This document shows, piece by piece, positions 2,817 to 51,156 of a DNA stretch of 64,000 nucleotides; the first letter of the stretch is position 1, and the number at the start of each line of letters is the position of its first letter. The stretch is from Synechococcales cyanobacterium VAR_4_metabat_354. Lineage in GTDB: Bacteria > Cyanobacteriota > Cyanobacteriia > Cyanobacteriales > Chamaesiphonaceae. Made by a program: the position numbers and the translations under genes. The DNA is taken from NCBI GenBank assembly GCA_031414775.1, contig JANOQI010000033.1:1-64000 (forward strand). The letters run 5' to 3'. Below the pieces are notes generated by a model. That model had not been told where the DNA came from. It was given only the letters and a program-made list of their open reading frames with translations, and did no database searches.

Positions 2817-5800
2817 CTAATTTGCTAATCGTCCTTTATTTTTCCGGAAGTTAATTGGTAGCAACTTGTTATCTTCTTGATCTGAGGTAGTCGGGACTTC
2901 CACTGCCCCTAATTTTTTTAGGTTGTCTTTTTGAGCGAGAGTCAAACCTTGAACCGCTGTAATATTCATGTTTTCGTAAGGGCGAGCTACGCGCAGAGCT
3001 GTTTGAAATTCCCCGGTCTGTTCTTCCCAGAAATAGATCATTTCATCAGCACCAGCACTAACAATACTGCCATCGATCGGATTGATTGCGATATCCCACA
3101 CCCAATCAGTATGTTTATTCATAGACCGGAGGCATTCACCTGTGACCGCATCCCACACACATACTTTGTGATCGTTTCCGCTATTGACCAGCCAGCGCCC
3201 GCAGGGGCTATAGGTGAGTGCGAGCACCCAGCCACTCGGATAGTCAATATTTAGGATCATTTCATCTGTATGAAAATTCCAAACCTTGATGTGATTATCT
3301 TGACCGGCACTAGCAACCTGTTGGCCATCGGGATGGAAGGCAACAGCAATGACTCGATCGATATGACCAGTAAAAGTATAAATACACTGCTCTGTTTTCA
3401 CATTCCAGATTTTGGCTGTTTGATCCTCGCTCACGGTAGCTAAGTATTGACCACAAACACTAAACTCCAAGTCGAGCACCTTATCCTGATGACCGCTTAA
3501 ACAAGCTAGACATTCGTTACGCTCAGGGTGCCACAATCGAATAGTTTTGTCGCCACTAGCACTGGCCAACAGCTGGCCATTAGGACTAAAATCTACCGCT
3601 AAAATGCCATCGGTGTGACCACTCATAGTGCAGGCACAGACCGATGACTGGTCGGCGAGATTCCAAACTTTAATGGTTTTGTCATCACTACCACTAACTA
3701 CTAGGGGTAATGTGGGGTGAAAAGCTACGGCGCGCACTGGTTGATGATGACCGATTAATTCCTGGGTACATTTTTTACTGGCAATATTCCAAACCCGGAC
3801 AATATGATCGTTGTGTCCACTGATTAGTTGTTTCCCATCAGCTTGGAGATCGATCGATAGCACCCAGTTGAGCCACCCTTGAATCACCTGTAGACATTTT
3901 CCATCTTGAGCATCCCACAGCCGGATAGTTTGATCATCACTGCCAGTGGCTAATCGATCGCCTGCTGGATGATAGGCTACCGACCAAATCCGGTTAGTGT
4001 GTCCCTGAATAACTTGCTGACAAATACCGCTGTTGCTGTCCCACAGGCGAATCGTATGATCGTTGCCAGTACTAGCAATTTGTTGACCATCAGGACTGAA
4101 AACTGCCGACCAGATCCAGTCGGTATGACCAACCAAAACATGTTGGCAAGCACCAGTCGGCTGATCCCAAATCCGTACCGTGTGATCGAGAGCAGCGCTC
4201 AGAATTTTCTGGCCATCTGGACTAAACATCACCGAGAAAACCCAGGCTTGATGACCAATCATTTCGCGCAAACAATGGTACTGAGCCAGATCCCACAACC
4301 TTACGATATTATCAGCGCCGCTACTAACTAATTGCTGACCATCAGGACTAAAGTGGACACGGCAAGCCCACCCTTGATGAGCTAAGAACTCATGGTGGAG
4401 TTCCCACGTGGCCACATCCCAGATTTTGATGTAGCCATCGGCATGAGTGGTAGCTAACCGATGACCAGTAGGGCAAAAGCTAGCATACAAAGGAAAACTG
4501 TTGCTGTGAATAGTTTTTTGGGCTGTACCAGTTTGGACATCCCATATTTTAATAGTCAAGTCATCAGAAGTACTGATCAGCAGCTGACCATTGGGGCTGA
4601 AAGAAATTCCCCTGACCCAATTTTGGTGACCGGACAAAGTCTGAAGGCATTGACCATCCTGAAGTCGCCAAATTTGAATTTCGCCATTGGCATTACTAGC
4701 GGCAAGTAGTTCACCATCAGGACTAAAGGTAACGTTGAGAACAGCACTAAAGGGTTGGATAAAAAGACAATCTTGAAAAGTAGCACTACTAAAATCGGTA
4801 TTTTGTAAGGTACTCCCCACAAAATCGGCTTGCCAGATTGGCAATTGAGAGCAGTCTAAATATTGCCAGTCAGGTGCGAGGTTTTTTAGTAAGTTCAACA
4901 GATTACCAGGTGCATAGGCTGGAAATGGCTGGGATGTCTGCTGTAACTGGTGTAGTAAAGCGCGGATGGCCTGAATTGATAACTCCTTACTAATGCCCAA
5001 TTTTTGACTGAGTAGTTGCAAAATAGGCTGAAGAACTAGCCGGATTTGAGTTTGCCGAATATAGCTGGGGCTTTGACTCTTGAGCAATGCTGTATTACAC
5101 AAAATATTCGGCTGGGCAGTGATAATTTCGTCAGTAACTTGGGTAATAAAATGAGCAGTGATAAATTCCATGACGACTGGCTGAAGATACCAACCTGAGC
5201 TAGATTGCTCGATTAAGGAGCGCCTTTTCAAAGCTTGCATTGTAAGCAATAATTGGGGCAACTGCGTTAAGGTACCTGGATAAATATCCGCAGCTAGCGT
5301 ATCTAGTGGTACTGGTGATCGATTGATCATCAGCCAGTACATCACAAGTTTTTCTGGTGGTGATGTTCTTTCTAGTTGACGATGCAGCAGATCATTGATG
5401 TCCGTGAATTGTAATAAACTGGTGGATAAATAAGGTAGCAAAAAGCGTAACTCGCCACTCAACATTTCTTGAACGCCAGCAGCCACAATTTTGAGGGCGA
5501 GGGGATTGCCGCCGTAGTGTTGGAGAATAGTTGTGAGATCTTGATCATCTACTGCTGTAAATCCTTGATCGGCAAGAATAGATTGCCCTTCCGATAAGGT
5601 AATACCCAGTAAGGACAAAGTGCGCACTGGTGTCAGGGCTCCGATGCCGAGAGCCACTTCTTTTGGTTGCTCGCGACTGGTCAGCATCACGCAGCTTTGA
5701 TGACTAATTTCTGCTAATTTTTTTAGTAAATCTTGATATTTTTCATAACCGGTTAAGTAAGTACCAACAGCGGTGCCTTGTTGAAAAATAGACTCCATGT

Positions 5801-6446
5801 TGTCCAAAATTACTAGACAGCGCTGCTGTTGCAATAAATGCAATAGTTCGGAGATTTGAGCTGGAATATCTGGTAGTGGTCTAGCGATCGGTTGGGGTGA
5901 TAAATTTTGAATGAGATCGGCTAGTAAGTCGGGCAGCAGCGGCGCATTGAGTAATGATCGCCAAATTAAGCGGTCGAAAGAGGTTTGATGTTGCTGGGCA
6001 AATTTGACGACTAGGGAGGTTTTGCCCATCCCACCCATCCCTAAAACGGCTACCAGGCGACAGCGGTCTGCCATCACCCAACTGGTCAGAGTTTCTAATT
6101 CGGTGGTGCGTCCATAAAAGGTGGAGATATCGATCGCACCACCCCAATCTTGGCGTTTCCCTGAAGCTGTTTTATTAGAGCTTTGCCATTTTTGATAGTG
6201 CTGCGATAAAACGGCTTTCAAATTCTGTTTTTTTACTGGCTCGCCCAATGATTTGCTTAGGAGCTGCCACAGCTGTGAACCAACATCTTTGATATAGCCA
6301 TAGTCATAGTCACAAGCATTAGCAATTTGTCCGTAAGAGCGACCAGACCAAGACTGTCTCAGGACTAATTCTTCAACCGTCCTTAGTTGAGAATTTCCGA
6401 TAACCTGCTTCGTAAAATTAAAGGCTTCTTCTTCCGTTATCTGCAC
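2817..6446 (-). CDS. HTH + NB-ARC STAND NTPase + pentapeptide linker + WD40 repeats
   Basis: N-terminal HTH-like region (SWSGRSYGQIA), DWG..D...FYGR, Walker A GMGGMGKT, Walker B LVILDNME, TSRE, GNPLAL, then many GH...WD repeats. Confidence 0.92.
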   Translation of the reverse strand: MQITEEEAFNFTKQVIGNSQLRTVEELVLRQSWSGRSYGQIANACDYDYGYIKDVGSQLWQLLSKSLGEPVKKQNLKAVLSQHYQKWQSSNKTASGKRQDWGGAIDISTFYGRTTELETLTSWVMADRCRLVAVLGMGGMGKTSLVVKFAQQHQTSFDRLIWRSLLNAPLLPDLLADLIQNLSPQPIARPLPDIPAQISELLHLLQQQRCLVILDNMESIFQQGTAVGTYLTGYEKYQDLLKKLAEISHQSCVMLTSREQPKEVALGIGALTPVRTLSLLGITLSEGQSILADQGFTAVDDQDLTTILQHYGGNPLALKIVAAGVQEMLSGELRFLLPYLSTSLLQFTDINDLLHRQLERTSPPEKLVMYWLMINRSPVPLDTLAADIYPGTLTQLPQLLLTMQALKRRSLIEQSSSGWYLQPVVMEFITAHFITQVTDEIITAQPNILCNTALLKSQSPSYIRQTQIRLVLQPILQLLSQKLGISKELSIQAIRALLHQLQQTSQPFPAYAPGNLLNLLKNLAPDWQYLDCSQLPIWQADFVGSTLQNTDFSSATFQDCLFIQPFSAVLNVTFSPDGELLAASNANGEIQIWRLQDGQCLQTLSGHQNWVRGISFSPNGQLLISTSDDLTIKIWDVQTGTAQKTIHSNSFPLYASFCPTGHRLATTHADGYIKIWDVATWELHHEFLAHQGWACRVHFSPDGQQLVSSGADNIVRLWDLAQYHCLREMIGHQAWVFSVMFSPDGQKILSAALDHTVRIWDQPTGACQHVLVGHTDWIWSAVFSPDGQQIASTGNDHTIRLWDSNSGICQQVIQGHTNRIWSVAYHPAGDRLATGSDDQTIRLWDAQDGKCLQVIQGWLNWVLSIDLQADGKQLISGHNDHIVRVWNIASKKCTQELIGHHQPVRAVAFHPTLPLVVSGSDDKTIKVWNLADQSSVCACTMSGHTDGILAVDFSPNGQLLASASGDKTIRLWHPERNECLACLSGHQDKVLDLEFSVCGQYLATVSEDQTAKIWNVKTEQCIYTFTGHIDRVIAVAFHPDGQQVASAGQDNHIKVWNFHTDEMILNIDYPSGWVLALTYSPCGRWLVNSGNDHKVCVWDAVTGECLRSMNKHTDWVWDIAINPIDGSIVSAGADEMIYFWEEQTGEFQTALRVARPYENMNITAVQGLTLAQKDNLKKLGAVEVPTTSDQEDNKLLPINFRKNKGRLAN

Positions 6447-41602: not shown

Positions 41603-42118
41603 CTAAATTTTAATGCTTTGATACAGCTCTGCAACTGATTTCATTGGCAAGTATAGTTTCACCGGTTCCTGCTGAAATGCTTGAAAGCCATACTTGATAT
41701 AAAAACTCAATGCTTTTTCATCCAAAGCTTCGGCGATCACTGCTAGGGATGCGATGTGTTGTGATGTGTCCAAGGATTTTTTGAGAGCATCCAGCAAGAG
41801 TAATTCGCCTAATCGTTTGCCTTGCTGGCTATCATCAACAGCCAAACGACCTAATAGGGTAGCTGGCAATGACGGATAACGAGGCAACCGTTTGGCGAAG
41901 GATTCATCCAAAACTGCAGTGTCAACTGTGTAAAAAGAAAGCGTGTAGTAAGCCAATACATCGGTGTTAGGGTCGTCAGTCAAAACAAATACTGTGGCGA
42001 CTTTTTTTTTTAGATCTTGGGAAGCTTTTTCGCGAATGTAATTATCTAAGCTAGTTTGACCGCAGCTGAAGTTATCCCGGAGGTGTTTACTATCGAAGGG
42101 GTCAATTTTGAGAGCCAT
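41603..42118 (-). CDS. GNAT acetyltransferase toxin (AtaT/TacT-like)
   Basis: FSCG...LD.Y, PATLLGRLAVD..QGKRLG..LL.DA, FY.KYGF. Confidence 0.92.
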   Translation of the reverse strand: MALKIDPFDSKHLRDNFSCGQTSLDNYIREKASQDLKKKVATVFVLTDDPNTDVLAYYTLSFYTVDTAVLDESFAKRLPRYPSLPATLLGRLAVDDSQQGKRLGELLLLDALKKSLDTSQHIASLAVIAEALDEKALSFYIKYGFQAFQQEPVKLYLPMKSVAELYQSIKI

Positions 42119-42405
42119 TAGACTGGTATTTCCTGGTGGTAGCGCATGGCGGCTGACGTTAGTGCTGCATTGGGTGGGGGCGGGTTGAGAACTGCATCCA
42201 CAAAAGCTGTGCTATCTTCCATGCTCAGTTTGAGGGTTTGATGTTGTTCAATCACTTTGCAAGCTGCTGTTTGAACGCTGGCAATCACAAAATCGGTGAG
42301 GGTGCGTCCTTCTAAGTCGGCTGCTTTTTGGATGAGGGCTTTGGTTTCTGGGCTAATCCGAGCTTCTAGTCGTGCTGTTGTTTTGGTAAGAGTTTTAGCA
42401 GTCAT
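42118..42405 (-). CDS. DUF1778 RHH antitoxin
   Basis: ARLEARI...K.LI.KAA.LEGRTLTDF, F.DA..NPPPPN; 1-bp overlap with the GNAT gene. Confidence 0.92.
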   Translation of the reverse strand: MTAKTLTKTTARLEARISPETKALIQKAADLEGRTLTDFVIASVQTAACKVIEQHQTLKLSMEDSTAFVDAVLNPPPPNAALTSAAMRYHQEIPV

Positions 42406-45848: not shown

Positions 45849-46185
45849 GGCTGAGGAGTGGCAAAATCGTTATTTTTTAATTATAGTGGATTTCACCAAA
45901 AAGCCAAGTGATTCTGCTCAGTTCATGACTCTCTGCCCAGGCGACCAATGCTATCCCAAAATTATTTACGCTGCCTGTAACAGTCAAGGCATTCCACATT
46001 TTTTATTAAATTTTGAGAGAACATACTTTTTCTTACTGACTATATTAGTATTTTCTATATATAATTCTTTTTAATCATAAAATCATTTTTATTTACTTAT
46101 AAACTATATTAGTAGTTAGATATAGCATTCACATGGGACTTGTTCGTGAGTTGACTTCTGTTAATTTTGAATGAAGAGTTTGAGC

Positions 46186-46626
46186 ATGGAAATTACTACT
46201 TTGACTGCTTTTATTAGTCCCTTTTTGCCATTTTTGTTGAAACTGGGCGGCAAGGCGCTGGAAAAATCGACGGAATCGGCCTCGGGCAAGTTTGGGGAGG
46301 CGGCGTTTGCGAAAGCCCAGGCGGTTTGGGGAAAGTTGGAGCCAAAGGTGGAGGCGAAGGAAGCAGCCAAAGAGGCCGCGATCGATCTAGCAAATAATCC
46401 AGATGATCAGGATTTACAGGCGGCGCTGCGGGTGCAGTTGAAGAAGTTGTTGGAACAGGATGAGGAGTTATTTAGAGAGATCGAGCAGATTCTGGCAGAA
46501 GATACGCCGGATGGTACTTCTGGCACCCAAATTGTGCAAAATGTCACGGGTAATCAAAACCTGGTCATCGGTCAAATGATGGGTGGTAAGGTGATTGGCA
46601 ATATTTCTGGCGATGTGACGATGTAA
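46186..46626 (+). CDS. Bell-like small helical effector with a C-terminal N/Q/G-rich (amyloid-like) motif
   Basis: Hydrophobic N-terminal helix (ITTLTAFISPFLPFLLKLG), W..L..K, P.D.D...AL..QL.KLL..D, C-terminal QNVTGNQNLVIGQMMGGKVIGNISGDV. Confidence 0.75.
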   Translation: MEITTLTAFISPFLPFLLKLGGKALEKSTESASGKFGEAAFAKAQAVWGKLEPKVEAKEAAKEAAIDLANNPDDQDLQAALRVQLKKLLEQDEELFREIEQILAEDTPDGTSGTQIVQNVTGNQNLVIGQMMGGKVIGNISGDVTM

Positions 46627-46651
46627 TTGTAAATGAGCCTGGAGAAAATTT

Positions 46652-48661
46652 ATGGCAGATCTAGTCCCTAATCCATCTAGCGATGATTCAAATTCAAGAT
46701 CTCAGAATCAGCAAAATATTGAGGGTAATGAAAATCAAGTTATTGGTGAGGTGATAGACGGTACCGCAATCCACACAGTCAGCGGTAATGTTATTTATAA
46801 CTATTATTATCGGAAAGAAATACCGATTGAAAATACCACTGAATCTGCTGAGACCGCTCTACTTCCTTGTCCTTATCGAGGTTTGTCTCACTTTGAGCCG
46901 GGGGATGCGAAATATTTTTTTGGCCGGGAAAGCTTTGTGGAAGAATTAGTCGAGGCAACGCAAACCCGTAATTTTATTGCTCTGCTGGGGGCTTCGGGAA
47001 GTGGTAAGTCTTCGGTGGTTTTTGCAGGATTAGTTCCTAAATTGCAACAGGCTGGTCATTGGCAGTTTACCCATTTTCGGCCCGGTTCAGATCCTTTCCA
47101 TACACTGGCTTTAGCACTAATTCCGCTTTACACAAAGAATTTGGATGAAACGGAACAAATACGTCAATCTCGTAATTTAGCTGGCTATTTTCGGACGGGA
47201 GAGGTTTTATTAGCTGATGTTTTTGCTCAAATTCAGCAGAATTTTCCAAATGATCGAGTATTGCTAATTGCCGATCAATTTGAGGAACTCTATACCCTCT
47301 GCAAAGATGAGACTACCAGCGATTTCCTTAGTATATTACTGGCTGGTATTGATAAAACCCCCTTTGCCCCAGTACTCGTGGCAACGATGCGGGCAGATTT
47401 TTTAGGCAATGCCCTTTCCTCTAAACACTTTGCGGATGTGTTGAAGAATGCTGACCTAAAACTGGGCCCGATGAATCGGGAAGAACTAACAGAGGCAATC
47501 AGTAAACCCGCAAAAATGGCAAGGCATCCCTTAGATTTAAGTACAATCAATCTATTAATCGAGCAGACCGCAGATCGGGCAGGAACTTTGCCTTTGCTCC
47601 AGTTTGCTCTGACCCAAATTTGGGAAGGTTTAGCAGCAGGAACAACACCCGCAGAGACGCTCAGATTGATCGGTGGTGTTGGTGGGGCTTTAGCTCGCAA
47701 AGCTCAAGATATTTATGACAAACTTACCTCTGACAAAAAAAAAATTGCACAGCGGGTGTTTTTGAGTTTGGTGCAGTTGGGGGAAGGAGACAAGACAACT
47801 TGTCGTCAGGTGAAGATAAAAAACTTGGTTTCAAAACAAAATAGTCTAGATCTCTTGCAGGAGACGATCTATCTGTTTGCTAGCCCTGATGCTCGGTTGA
47901 TTACCTTGGCAAATGATGGGGATGCAGAAACTGCTGAAATAACTCATGAGGCATTATTTGACAACTGGCAGCAGTTAAAAAACTGGCTGAAGGGTAGTCG
48001 TGAATATCTATGGACTCGGCAGCGGTTAGATGATGCGATAGAAACTTGGGAAAGACGTAATCGACCAGAAGGAAGCTTATGGCAAGCGCAGGATTTAGAA
48101 TCTCTGCGAAACTTTTATAAACATGCTGGCATTGACATGACACAGCGGCAAATTTATTTCTTTAATGCCTCAAAGCAATCTGCAAAATGGAAGAAAGTTA
48201 AAGATATATCACCATATTGTATGTTTGGCGCGTTAATCACATTATGTTTCTTTTGGGTAACAGATGTTGAATACATTACAGCTAAAATTCAGAATGAAAA
48301 CACGTTTTTTGTTAAAAAGCCAACATCTGGAAAGGATAAATATTATTATGATTTACTCCGCTTAGTACTTCGTGAAGCGCTCCCGGGTAAAAAAATAGAA
48401 TTAAAACTTAGAAAAGCAAATTCTTCTCAAGGAGAAGCGACAATTGCACTAAATACAGATGCAATAGATCTTAAGAACCGAGCAAATAAAATCAAACTGG
48501 ATATTGATTGGATGATGGGAAACGATGACAGGCGTTCACAAGCAAAGAATATAAATTTTCCACTTACATTTGGATTGCTATCTCATAGATTATGTCTTGT
48601 ACGTAACAATGACTTTGAATTTCGGAAGATATCTAATAAAAATTTATTCCTCAAAAAATAA
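46652..48661 (+). CDS. nSTAND1-type NTPase with N-terminal amyloid-like motif, TM helix and first part of a solute-binding-like domain
   Basis: CPYRGL..F....A.YFFGRE, GASGSGKSS, DQFEELYT, TMRADF, LPLLQFAL, HEAL. TM at ~48205-48265. Stops at the A6 tract. Confidence 0.85.
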   Translation: MADLVPNPSSDDSNSRSQNQQNIEGNENQVIGEVIDGTAIHTVSGNVIYNYYYRKEIPIENTTESAETALLPCPYRGLSHFEPGDAKYFFGRESFVEELVEATQTRNFIALLGASGSGKSSVVFAGLVPKLQQAGHWQFTHFRPGSDPFHTLALALIPLYTKNLDETEQIRQSRNLAGYFRTGEVLLADVFAQIQQNFPNDRVLLIADQFEELYTLCKDETTSDFLSILLAGIDKTPFAPVLVATMRADFLGNALSSKHFADVLKNADLKLGPMNREELTEAISKPAKMARHPLDLSTINLLIEQTADRAGTLPLLQFALTQIWEGLAAGTTPAETLRLIGGVGGALARKAQDIYDKLTSDKKKIAQRVFLSLVQLGEGDKTTCRQVKIKNLVSKQNSLDLLQETIYLFASPDARLITLANDGDAETAEITHEALFDNWQQLKNWLKGSREYLWTRQRLDDAIETWERRNRPEGSLWQAQDLESLRNFYKHAGIDMTQRQIYFFNASKQSAKWKKVKDISPYCMFGALITLCFFWVTDVEYITAKIQNENTFFVKKPTSGKDKYYYDLLRLVLREALPGKKIELKLRKANSSQGEATIALNTDAIDLKNRANKIKLDIDWMMGNDDRRSQAKNINFPLTFGLLSHRLCLVRNNDFEFRKISNKNLFLKK

Positions 48662-49245
48662 TCATAACACAAGTAACGAGTTGGCCTGACACAGCTATTT
48701 TGAGAAGTAATGATAAGTTGACATTAAAGCAGACACAAAACCAAAAAGAATCAGAAAAGCAACTATTAAATCGTCAAGCCAATTGTTTTTTGCGTGGTTT
48801 GAGCGAGATATATATTGAACAAAAAGAACTTAAGGAAAGCGAGAAAAAAGATTTCTCGATATTAAACACTTTTTTCTTTCAATATCATTCTCCCATAAAT
48901 TTCTATGTTGCGAAAGACAATGAATATTTGCATGACAAAATAGATAGAGGATTGGAAAAAATATTAGAATCCGGGCAACTATTATGTATATACAAACATC
49001 ATTATGGCGAGTTTATAAAGAGGGCAAAGTTAAAAGAAGATAATAGAATTTTTCTTGGCAGTGGCAAACCAGAGAAAACAGAGCATCCGGAGTTATATCT
49101 AGATTTCACAAAGGATTATACAAACATTTTTAAAGATATAGAGGAAAAACAGACTTCTCAATTGACTCCATCAAAATGTAATTCCTTGATTGAAAACCTA
49201 GAACATGAAAACGAACAACTATATCCAAATAAATTAAAAAAATAG
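48661..49245 (+). pseudogene. Frameshifted C-terminal continuation (solute-binding-protein-like) of the nSTAND1 gene
   Basis: The shifted frame is open from 48661: IITQVTSWPDTAILRSN...CFLRGLSEI...YHSPINFYVAKDN..L...I..GL, completing the domain begun upstream. Confidence 0.7.
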
Positions 49246-49496
49246 CCATGCCGCCTCCGCTATAGGGGCATCACAATGAAAACTAGTGAACATTTCGGGC
49301 ACACAGTTTCTTAGAGAACAACACCAAAGTTAGTAAAAGCAACAAGCACCTCAGCGATAGCATGGCACCAAAAAACAGTAACCAGACTTTGAAAATTCAT
49401 GACAGAGCCGCCCCTTTTAGCCAATTGATCTAAATTCCCATATTGCGATTCAGCCAGATCTAAAGGTCGATCGAAATCAGGCGATCAGTGATAATT

Positions 49497-49757
49497 TCAA
49501 TTGCCTTCTATATATTGACGTAAAACGTTGTTTATGAGGGTTTTATACTGTTCGCCTTGCGCCTGAAACCATTTTTGCACGTCCGGATCAAGCTGAACTA
49601 GGTTATGTGCTTGTTCTGCTGGAATACGTAAAGTAGCCCGTTCAAAAAATTCGTCAGTTAGCGGTGGAATGTCTGAGTAGTCAATATTTTCTTCTGACTT
49701 CGACTCTAAAGCTGCCCAATTAGTACGAGAGGTACTGTTCAAATTTTTTTTGTTCAT
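49497..49757 (-). CDS. BrnA antitoxin family protein
   Basis: IDYSDIPPL, LDPDV..WF...G..Y.T.IN.VLR.Y. Confidence 0.9.
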   Translation of the reverse strand: MNKKNLNSTSRTNWAALESKSEENIDYSDIPPLTDEFFERATLRIPAEQAHNLVQLDPDVQKWFQAQGEQYKTLINNVLRQYIEGN

Positions 49758-49998
49758 GACGATTGGCTCTTCGCGCTGAAATAATTCGAGTTACATCCTT
49801 GTGACGCTCTGTCCAGACTACCAATGCTATCCCAGAACCGAGAAAACCAATTCCGAACCAGCGATCTTCGCCATAATCAAAACGCTCATCTAGCTTAATC
49901 AGCATTTCCCCATCAAACATTGGAGGAACATCAGCAAAATCAATCTCATGTTTACGGATGTTTTCAAGGTTTTTTGCTTCGTCCCACTCAAATTGCAT
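49720..49998 (-). CDS. BrnT family RNase toxin
   Basis: FEWDEAKN..N..KH.IDF, YGEDR, RIISARRA. Confidence 0.93.
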   Translation of the reverse strand: MQFEWDEAKNLENIRKHEIDFADVPPMFDGEMLIKLDERFDYGEDRWFGIGFLGSGIALVVWTERHKDVTRIISARRANRHEQKKFEQYLSY

Positions 49999-50103
49999 GA
50001 AGGATTAGGAATATGACAGACTGCACTAACTTCTTTCATTATCCCGCATTTACTTAGGCTAGATCTACCCTGCATAGTATCGCCCTCAATTCCATTATCT
50101 ACC

Positions 50104-51156
50104 TTAGAGATTCGGATAGAGCAAAATCTTATAGGTTTCCGGAGTAGGAGCCGAAGCTTGAGCCACCGCCTTAGCCAGATCCTTCAGATGATACTTATCA
50201 CTAATTAGCGCATCCACATCAATCCGCTGATTAAAAACAATATCCTGCGCCAAACCCTGCACCCGAAAAGAAGAACTATAACTGCCCATCAAATCGATCT
50301 CCCGCTGGTACAAAACATTAGGATTGAGGGGAATAGTCACTTCATCCGGAAATTCCGCAAAAAACAAAATCTTGCCGCCCTTGCGCGTACAGTCCAAAGC
50401 CTGGAAAAAAGCCTTATCGCTGGACACAGCCAATAGACTAACATCCACGCCCATCCCGCCAGTCAGATCCTGAATCTTGCTAGCCAAGTCGGGGTCAGTC
50501 GCTAAAAAAGCCGCATCAGCTCCGATCGACAATGCCTTTTCTACCCGACTGGGAATTAAATCAGTCGTAATCGCCCGGCCACCAAAATACTTCACCAACA
50601 TCGCAAACATTAAGCCGATCGGACCTGCCCCGGTAATCAAAACCGTATCCCCGGCCTGGATATTAGCCTTCTTCACCGCTTTTAAACAGCAATTGGTGGG
50701 TTCTACAAAACTAGCCTGCTCAAAAGTAATCCGGTCAGGAATCGCAATCAAGCCGCCATTTTGGACAATATGCCCCGGCACTTTTACATAATCAGCAAAA
50801 CCACCACCACTGGGCGTAAACCCGGCTGTTGTTGTGACTTGCTTATAGACATCACACATCGAATAGTTTTCGTGCAGACAATAAGCACAGCGCATACAGG
50901 GAATATGGTGCATCACCACCACCCGCTGACCCACTTGCCAATTTTGCACGTCCGCCCCAACTTGCGAAATCACCCCCGCCGTTTCGTGACCAAAAATTCG
51001 GGGCGGTGCATAAAGCGGATAGCGAATTTTTTTGATATCTGATTGGCACAAGCCCACTACCTTTACGGCTACTAGTACTTCATCAGCAGCTAATTCTGGG
51101 ACTGGTAATTCCTCATAGCTGAGTTGATTTACACCGCGAAATACTTGTGCCTTCAT
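50104..51156 (-). CDS. Zinc-dependent medium-chain dehydrogenase
   Basis: GLCQSD, GHE, CMRCAYC..C, GAGPIG. Start adjusted to ATG 51156. Confidence 0.92.
   Translation of the reverse strand: MKAQVFRGVNQLSYEELPVPELAADEVLVAVKVVGLCQSDIKKIRYPLYAPPRIFGHETAGVISQVGADVQNWQVGQRVVVMHHIPCMRCAYCLHENYSMCDVYKQVTTTAGFTPSGGGFADYVKVPGHIVQNGGLIAIPDRITFEQASFVEPTNCCLKAVKKANIQAGDTVLITGAGPIGLMFAMLVKYFGGRAITTDLIPSRVEKALSIGADAAFLATDPDLASKIQDLTGGMGVDVSLLAVSSDKAFFQALDCTRKGGKILFFAEFPDEVTIPLNPNVLYQREIDLMGSYSSSFRVQGLAQDIVFNQRIDVDALISDKYHLKDLAKAVAQASAPTPETYKILLYPNL

Follow-up and report, generated by a model that had tools for sequence, protein, structure and literature searches.

A candidate amyloid signalling pair of a Bell-type effector and an nSTAND1 receptor in a cyanobacterial genome

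In fungal HET-S/NWD2 and mammalian RHIM systems, a helical domain that targets membranes is activated when a receptor templates an amyloid fold. Two neighbouring genes of Synechococcales cyanobacterium VAR_4_metabat_354, one coding for a small helical protein and the other for a STAND NTPase, carry similar short stretches at the C-terminus of the first product and the N-terminus of the second, which raises the question of whether they form a signalling pair coupled by such a motif and what this pair might sense and do. The window, that is the whole stretch of 64,000 nucleotides that was analysed, had been read from its letters alone, and this sequence-only reading proposed a prion-like pair whose effector acts on membranes. 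The features of the locus are the following.

45909 to 50104, no strand: 4,196-bp insertion between nadA and a dehydrogenase gene (GC 0.396, window 0.456; site unoccupied in the genomes G001 and G007)
46186 to 46626, forward strand: putative Bell-type helical effector (P0001, 146 aa), with a helical domain at about residues 1-105, a disordered linker and a C-terminal motif
46186 to 46245, forward strand: amphipathic/hydrophobic N-terminal helix with Glu2, from hydropathy and moment; predicted membrane-inserting element
46522 to 46623 (core 46537-46617), forward strand: effector-side amyloid-type motif, residues about 113-146, from alignment and motif profile
46652 to 48661, forward strand: 5' part of the receptor gene (P0002, 669 aa), with motif, nSTAND1 domain, predicted transmembrane helix and the first third of a binding-protein domain; premature end
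46685 to 46792 (core 46712-46792), forward strand: receptor-side amyloid-type motif, residues about 12-47, from alignment and motif profile
48648 to 48661, forward strand: frameshift of one base within a short run of A, from comparison of contigs of sequencing runs
48652 to 49245, forward strand: 3' part of the receptor gene in another frame, with the rest of the SBP_bac_3-like sensor, from a weak Pfam match, similarity to P0276 and the fold of P0277
49497 to 49998, reverse strand: BrnA/BrnT toxin-antitoxin pair (PF14384, PF04365) within the same insertion

Translation of 46537-46617 and 46712-46792 gives two 27-residue peptides that align without gaps and are identical at 13/27 positions, and 25 bp separate the effector stop (46626) from the start of the STAND open reading frame (46652), just as first described. 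Local alignment (BLOSUM62, 14/4) extends the match to 36 residues with 16 identities and a score of 82, which exceeds the criterion used for published pairs (at least 15 aligned residues and a score of at least 40; 10.1101/2020.01.06.895854). This score is reached by none of 2,000 shuffles of the STAND N-terminus that keep its composition (mean 22.6, sd 4.2), and the STAND N-terminus ranks first among the 2,681 ORF N-termini of the genome, where the next unrelated ORF scores 43, so the proposed effector-then-STAND layout of amyloid signalling is borne out. A tblastn search of the 3.56-Mb genome with the effector also matches the STAND N-terminus (E 4.8e-4). In the genome's 35,630 frames, the profile of the effector-side motif, built from 60 effector tails, is significant at three sites: in the effector, at the start of the STAND protein and in another Bell-type gene, on contig C30. 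This second gene scores 28 with its own neighbour, a value equalled in 162 of 2,000 shuffles, which counts against the reading. Control neighbours (n=4; PIN-like, Uma2 and phosphomutase-like) give motif alignment scores of 19-23.

The motif is composed of G, V, Q, N, T and I residues, a composition that matches the bias reported for BASS motifs and therefore counts for BASS-type signalling. Gln and Gly are invariant across 17 receptor N-termini with diverging flanks. As DNA, the two motif copies are identical at 48/81 positions, and the codon is the same at 6 of the 13 shared residues and differs at 7; these codon differences point to conservation at the protein level, and together with the DNA identity they rule out a recent duplication as the source of the two copies. 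The G-phi-Q-phi-G core is absent on either side in 39 pairs (0/39), which excludes likeness to RHIM, BASS3 or PP and refines the earlier description on this point. No internal pseudo-repeat was found in the effector motif. Complex prediction with two effector and two receptor motifs scores 0.10 (mark 0.32), a value that weighs neither for nor against the pairing.

Bell domains are described as having a hydrophobic N-terminal helix in which the second or third residue is acidic (10.1101/2020.01.06.895854). The effector has Glu2, and Asp or Glu occupies position 2 or 3 in 106/124 aligned relatives. Its residues 3-20 have a mean hydropathy of 1.57 and a moment of 1.45, in agreement with the membrane-targeting helix proposed before, although insertion into the membrane is a prediction. 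The model of the effector has six helices over residues 3-104 with a mean pLDDT of 70 and an unstructured tail with pLDDT below 50, and the protein length and the helical bundle of about 100 residues fit the Bell range of 120-150 aa. Relatives are numerous: one protein search gives 421, and a second gives 1,303 cluster representatives. The effector is 53% identical to L068 (E 5e-30) and, over its length, 44% identical to L072 (E 7e-39). When compared by eye, published Bell-side entries such as A0A2D0HA37_9NOSO end in almost the same tail as L068, and the published pair BAY13571.1/BAY13572.1 is similar to L072 and its partner. Through these relatives, the comparison with Bell domains suggested by the sequence-only reading points indirectly but strongly to a Bell-type effector.

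Pfam, NCBIfam and PADLOC profiles give the effector no name. A Foldseek search with its model for a fold like those of HeLo, MLKL or Babybell returns nothing at E 0.001, the best VIA match has Z 4.8, and a profile search of PDB sequences returns only designed helical proteins, the best at E 0.027; Bell topologies are reported to vary (10.1101/2024.11.07.622273). Identity as HetE-N (PF20701), a lead from the Atlas, where it accounts for 14% of one look-alike cluster, was rejected, with 0/124 aligned relatives matching at E 0.01.

The pairing was followed in 90 loci, of which 82 have a Bell-profile match and 72 remain after 10 duplicates are dropped; among these, 50 are complete stand-alone Bell-type genes with at least 400 downstream bases. 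The start of the next gene matches the effector tail at a score of at least 40 in 32/50 of them, 25 with a Walker A pattern. Homologous effectors were expected to adjoin genes with a matching motif, and this is found in 16/22 effectors whose tails belong to the motif family of the window (at least 25 bits), 13 with Walker A; both counts take in the window pair and the C30 gene. The matching neighbour is missing in 6/22 of the motif family (L014, L017, L036, L047, L049 and L055) and in 18/50 overall, which counts against the reading; among unmatched effectors, two have a more distant STAND gene and six have a STAND neighbour with no motif detected.

Eighteen partners scanned against Pfam comprise 11 nSTAND1 proteins, one NACHT (L029), one NB-ARC/TPR (L022), one AAA_35, one partial weak match and three with no match, and the L029 and L022 partners carry the window-type motif. 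The motif is also found in fusions between Bell and CHAT or DUF900 hydrolase domains and in a Bell-motif-nSTAND1 fusion (L053/L093), and in G005 a stand-alone CHAT gene with the motif at its start lies behind the L093 fusion. Some motif-bearing effectors carry fused antitoxin-like or HTH-DUF433 domains and precede PIN-like genes; in these the motif is perhaps a relic. All-in-one Bell-NTPase-FGE-type proteins lack the motif (L023 as scanned; L024 and L040 similar by eye). Bell-type matches are patchy, being present in 12/41 near genomes and in 26/401 genomes of the phylum sample. The motif is retained while the receptor type changes, and the pairing recurs across cyanobacteria.

Co-variation of the two motif copies was followed in 41 pairs picked by eye for a plausible partner, 39 after dereplication, a set that excludes the controls and the loci without such a partner. 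Cognate combinations score 64.2 and swapped ones 40.2 in the 39 pairs, and 67.5 and 60.2 in 23 tight-family pairs; the permutation p is 5e-5, with kin being non-independent. In 19 disjoint nearest-kin pairs, 12 favour the cognate combination, 4 the swapped one and 3 are ties (sign p 0.038, Wilcoxon 0.011), and the signal comes mainly from pairs with a Bell identity below 0.7. At a Bell identity of at least 0.7, cognate and swapped combinations are about equal, with differences from -19 to +33, and give no sign of fine-scale partner specificity, which counts against the reading. Since the signal stems from divergent pairs, motif types appear to travel with their partners, and close variants are probably interchangeable. 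The co-variation anticipated for the pair is therefore plain between divergent motif types and indistinct among close kin.

The receptor is a STAND protein as first noted, although of the nSTAND1 clade and not of NACHT or NB-ARC type: residues 74-473 match PF20703 at E 5e-105 (352.7 bits, gathering cut-off 27.1) and contain a Walker A (GASGSGKS) and a Walker B region. The NTPase is followed at about residues 519-537 by a predicted transmembrane helix with a hydropathy of 1.66 and preceding basic residues, and a comparable hydrophobic stretch is found in 10/12 nSTAND1 partners longer than 500 aa. The receptor would thus be anchored in the membrane with its N-terminus inside and its C-terminus outside.

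The reading frame ends within the domain that follows. Against the relative P0276 (850 aa), the 5' part of the receptor shows 51% identity and the 3' part, which matches residues 664-846 of P0276, shows 56%; since the two matches follow one another in P0276, the ORF 48652-49245 continues the same protein. Its Pfam match to SBP_bac_3 (E 0.014) is below the cut-off, and the Atlas look-alikes of the sensor domain are family-3 solute-binding proteins. A model of the sensor relative P0277 (mean pLDDT 58.6, alignment of five sequences) finds glutamate, arginine and glutamine binding proteins as best Foldseek matches (E 2.5e-6; 108 matches at E 0.001), and in this model the sensor resembles the amino-acid-binding-protein or solute-binding-protein fold. 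Such a sensor is rare: two protein searches return five other proteins (P0275-P0279), and with P0277 as query none is found in 38 other family genomes or 400 order genomes. P0277 and the Bell protein P0052 come from contigs of equal length (5,407), as do P0275 and the Bell protein P0042 (65,910), so each couple may be adjacent. P0277 itself, a single record of 418 aa, combines motif, helix and sensor without an NTPase and, if it is an amyloid receptor, would be the shortest to our knowledge. The GC content of the sensor part is 0.31 versus 0.43 in the NTPase part, which is consistent with a swapped-in module.

The frameshift near 48652 and the continuation of the STAND gene in the ORF ending at 49245 had been missed by the sequence-only reading. 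Contigs from runs X5 and X6, which belong to a different study, have one more A at 48652 and an open frame; apart from this base they differ from the window at 5 positions in 2.3 kb (X5) and at 2 positions in 0.9 kb (X6). An intact form of the receptor therefore exists in near-identical DNA. The run X1, which is possibly the source run, agrees with the window at the A run, X9 gives no clear signal there, and the frame is open in relatives; the break is not obviously an assembly slip and represents an allele. The receptor of this allele lacks the last 200 or so residues of the sensor and would be deaf to its ligand, which probably leaves the system of the sequenced strain unresponsive.

The flanks of the insertion lie about 10 bases apart in G001 and G007, and the patchy presence of the insertion, which the pair shares with the toxin-antitoxin genes, counts for a defence or cell-death module. 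No PADLOC 2.0 defence model matches the pair, for which PADLOC and NCBIfam give only Walker-A-level or marginal matches. The promoter and terminator scan is at chance level (11 versus 9.4).

Taking the observed gene layout, the conserved pairing and the domain identities together with the published systems, effector and receptor are likely to make up a BASS-type module of two genes that signals through amyloid and serves defence or regulated cell death. BASS1 and BASS3 motifs form prions and cross-seed (10.1101/2020.01.06.895854), and Bab/Agp (BASS11) is an amyloid-controlled abortive-infection system of E. coli (10.1101/2024.11.07.622273); from these we infer the ligand, oligomer, fibril, cross-seeding and toxicity. 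The C-terminal sensor, which in relatives consists of WD40, TPR or other domains and here would be a solute-binding-protein fold behind a transmembrane helix, would bind a ligand, upon which nSTAND1 would exchange its nucleotide and oligomerise. Brought together in this way, the N-terminal motifs of the receptor would then nucleate a cross-beta fold, which would serve as a seed and template the effector tails, and the Bell domain would free its N-terminal helix, leading to membrane damage and to cell death or arrest. A more detailed version, which we put forward only tentatively, is that a small molecule binds to a periplasmic domain of the amino-acid-binding-protein type, which signals through one transmembrane helix to nSTAND1 and from there through an unnamed cyanobacterial amyloid motif to a Bell pore-former, with the change in the A run as a possible reversible switch of the sensor.

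The coupling could also be imagined without amyloid propagation, the motif being a homotypic adaptor that joins the two proteins in a beta-sheet or beta-helix complex of finite size, much as EADs or death domains do. The genomic evidence consists of a conserved shared motif rather than fibrils, nSTAND1 systems with homotypic EAD adaptors are described (PMC8195603, PMC10907252), and the missing pseudo-repeat of the effector motif also suits an adaptor; however, the motif has the length, terminal positions and composition of proven amyloid motifs (10.1101/2020.01.06.895854), the effector tail is disordered in the monomer model and near relatives are present in published BASS data, and we regard such an adaptor as quite improbable. 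A more radical alternative, that the similarity is a by-product without function of low-complexity N/Q/G linkers, an old tandem duplication or a split Bell-STAND fusion, can point to the L053/L093 fusion, which indicates that fission and fusion at the motif occur, and to the frameshifted receptor of the sequenced strain. It is largely refuted, and hardly credible, in view of the shuffles that keep composition and never reach the observed score, the codon differences at 7/13 shared residues, the Gln and Gly that are invariant despite diverging flanks and the persistence of the motif on unrelated NTPase clades.

The biological role is a separate matter, since an amyloid-coupled module could serve development or environmental sensing, for example of amino acids or biofilm neighbours, with Bell depolarising or remodelling the membrane and no killing. 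This proposal shares part of its mechanism with the defence or cell-death module. The sensor has the fold of periplasmic amino-acid-binding proteins, the pair lacks a matching defence model, and 10.1101/2024.11.07.622273 states that the function of Bell/NLR pairs is unresolved, all of which suit this role. It is nevertheless unlikely, because the distribution is patchy and island-borne beside a toxin-antitoxin pair, the rapid swapping of sensors and the CHAT and hydrolase effectors are typical of conflict systems, and Bab kills (10.1101/2024.11.07.622273). The BASS-type defence or cell-death module thus remains the preferred reading.

If so, bacterial amyloid signalling would extend to a third and abundant STAND clade, nSTAND1, which lies outside the defining screen, and one cyanobacterial motif family would link interchangeable receptors (nSTAND1, NACHT, NB-ARC, AAA_35) with interchangeable effectors (Bell, CHAT, hydrolase). 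The activating trigger is the open question for Bell/NLR pairs. A sensor with a small-molecule-binding fold would make this trigger findable by ligand screening, so that the chain of ligand, oligomer, fibril and membrane damage would be open to testing even when no phage is known. The most promising part is this predicted link between a small-molecule sensor that spans the membrane and an amyloid switch.

The pair can be compared with several known systems, for the published ones as far as the consulted parts of these sources describe them. The proposed receptor-templated amyloid activation is analogous to that of HET-S/NWD2 and RHIM, whereas the motif lacks their twofold pseudo-repeat and G-phi-Q-phi-G core. 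The nSTAND1 conflict systems (PMC8195603, PMC10907252) have the same NTPase family and variable C-terminal sensors, whereas their coupling goes through folded effector-associated domains (EAD); the same sources predict STAND-type proteins with periplasmic sensor domains, a NACHT target among them, and in the parts consulted do not link nSTAND1 to amyloid motifs. Bab/Agp likewise has a Bell-related effector activated via an amyloid motif shared with the adjacent gene, which for the present pair is deduced from the genes, and it is a precedent for a receptor other than NACHT or NB-ARC. In contrast, Agp is a cytoplasmic TPR-GreA/B-PIN protein and Babybell has about 80 aa.

Likeness is greatest to the Bell/NLR pairs of BASS1-10 (Dyrka et al.), which share a helical effector of 120-150 aa with a hydrophobic N-terminal helix and an acidic residue 2/3, a motif of about 25-35 aa common to the effector C-terminus and the receptor N-terminus, adjacent collinear genes, occurrence in cyanobacteria, and CHAT and hydrolase as alternative effectors, both reported for BASS motifs (10.1101/2020.01.06.895854). 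BASS1-10 are, however, defined by a NACHT or NB-ARC NLR with TPR or WD repeats, and the receptor described here is nSTAND1, followed by a predicted transmembrane helix and a sensor of binding-protein type. By eye, among the entries listed, the motif appears atypical of all ten published classes and seems to fit no named BASS family well. Word searches of supplement 1 of PMC8086366 return close motif entries, at least one in class C01, taken to be BASS1 from its set size of 210, and others in 'BASSother': by eye, A0A2W4ZHR4_9CYAN (C01) and EKU96908.1 ('BASSother') carry the window motif, and BAY13571.1 ('BASSother', with BAY13572.1) is an effector homologue. These are single entries, as opposed to the family found here, which has dozens of members with mostly nSTAND1 partners. 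The BASS1-10 screen gathered only NACHT and NB-ARC neighbours (10.1101/2020.01.06.895854), and a family linked mostly to nSTAND1 would for this reason have failed to reach the five pairs that it required. In the literature searched, which covers few subscription journals and includes the consulted parts of PMC12261475, PMC13506858 and 10.64898/2026.01.04.697583, no nSTAND1 protein or transmembrane binding-protein sensor was found tied to amyloid signalling. The signalling principle is already published, and what this locus adds to the known systems is the unnamed tag family, the nSTAND1 receptor and a domain predicted to face outward and to bind small molecules.

The source genome (G000) has a second Bell-type gene, which is found with a partner gene on another contig:

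G000:C30:9861-13708 (L091:1362-5209), - strand, second Bell-type gene and partner gene

The Bell-type product has 140 aa and carries a motif from the same family as the window pair, and cross-talk between this protein and the window receptor is possible. The gene lies upstream of the partner, with a spacing of 11-12 bp, and the 1,137-aa partner protein has no matches in Pfam or PADLOC. Its N-terminal motif is degenerate; a relative at the compared locus L045 shows the family motif more clearly. ParA-like, RelE/HigA-like and transposase genes are present in the neighbourhood.

A further STAND locus of this genome comprises two overlapping genes:

G000:C46:21930-24697 (L092), nSTAND1-TM-TPR gene and overlapping 191-aa gene

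The 191-aa product has a Q/S/G/N-rich stretch in the middle of the protein and the nSTAND1-TM-TPR protein has an N-terminus rich in Q/N/I; these genes are possibly an additional amyloid-type pair of a different motif type. The window itself also encodes:

Window 2817-6446, 1,209-aa WD40-repeat protein
Window 41603-42405, toxin-antitoxin pair (antitoxin TacA-like, toxin GNAT) at a distance of 4 kb from the island

Bell and motif are also fused to other domains:

L093:3975-8207 (G005:C151, another genome), Bell-nSTAND1 fusion and CHAT gene
L011:5457-11566, three-gene unit
L032:6001-12428, three-gene unit

In L093, a single motif copy joins Bell to nSTAND1 in a 1,131-aa ORF, and the downstream CHAT gene has the motif at its start. 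The three-gene units encode Bell-motif-CHAT, a 400-aa motif-bearing protein without a Pfam match, and a 1,200-1,300-aa protein, which has a HEAT/ARM-type match in L011. The 418-aa protein P0277 combines the motif, a transmembrane helix and a binding-protein domain, without NTPase; the longest contig recorded for it is as long as that recorded for the Bell protein P0052. Bell-TA hybrids are a recurring arrangement: at L004, L043, L015, L048 and L057, Bell and the motif (intact or decayed) form one protein with either an antitoxin-like domain or an HTH-DUF433 domain, with a PIN-like gene directly 3'. At L065, L074 and L077, the spacer between the Bell and STAND genes consists of short tandem repeats and is about 300 bp long, and the motifs of these pairs are similar to published BASS9/10-type entries.
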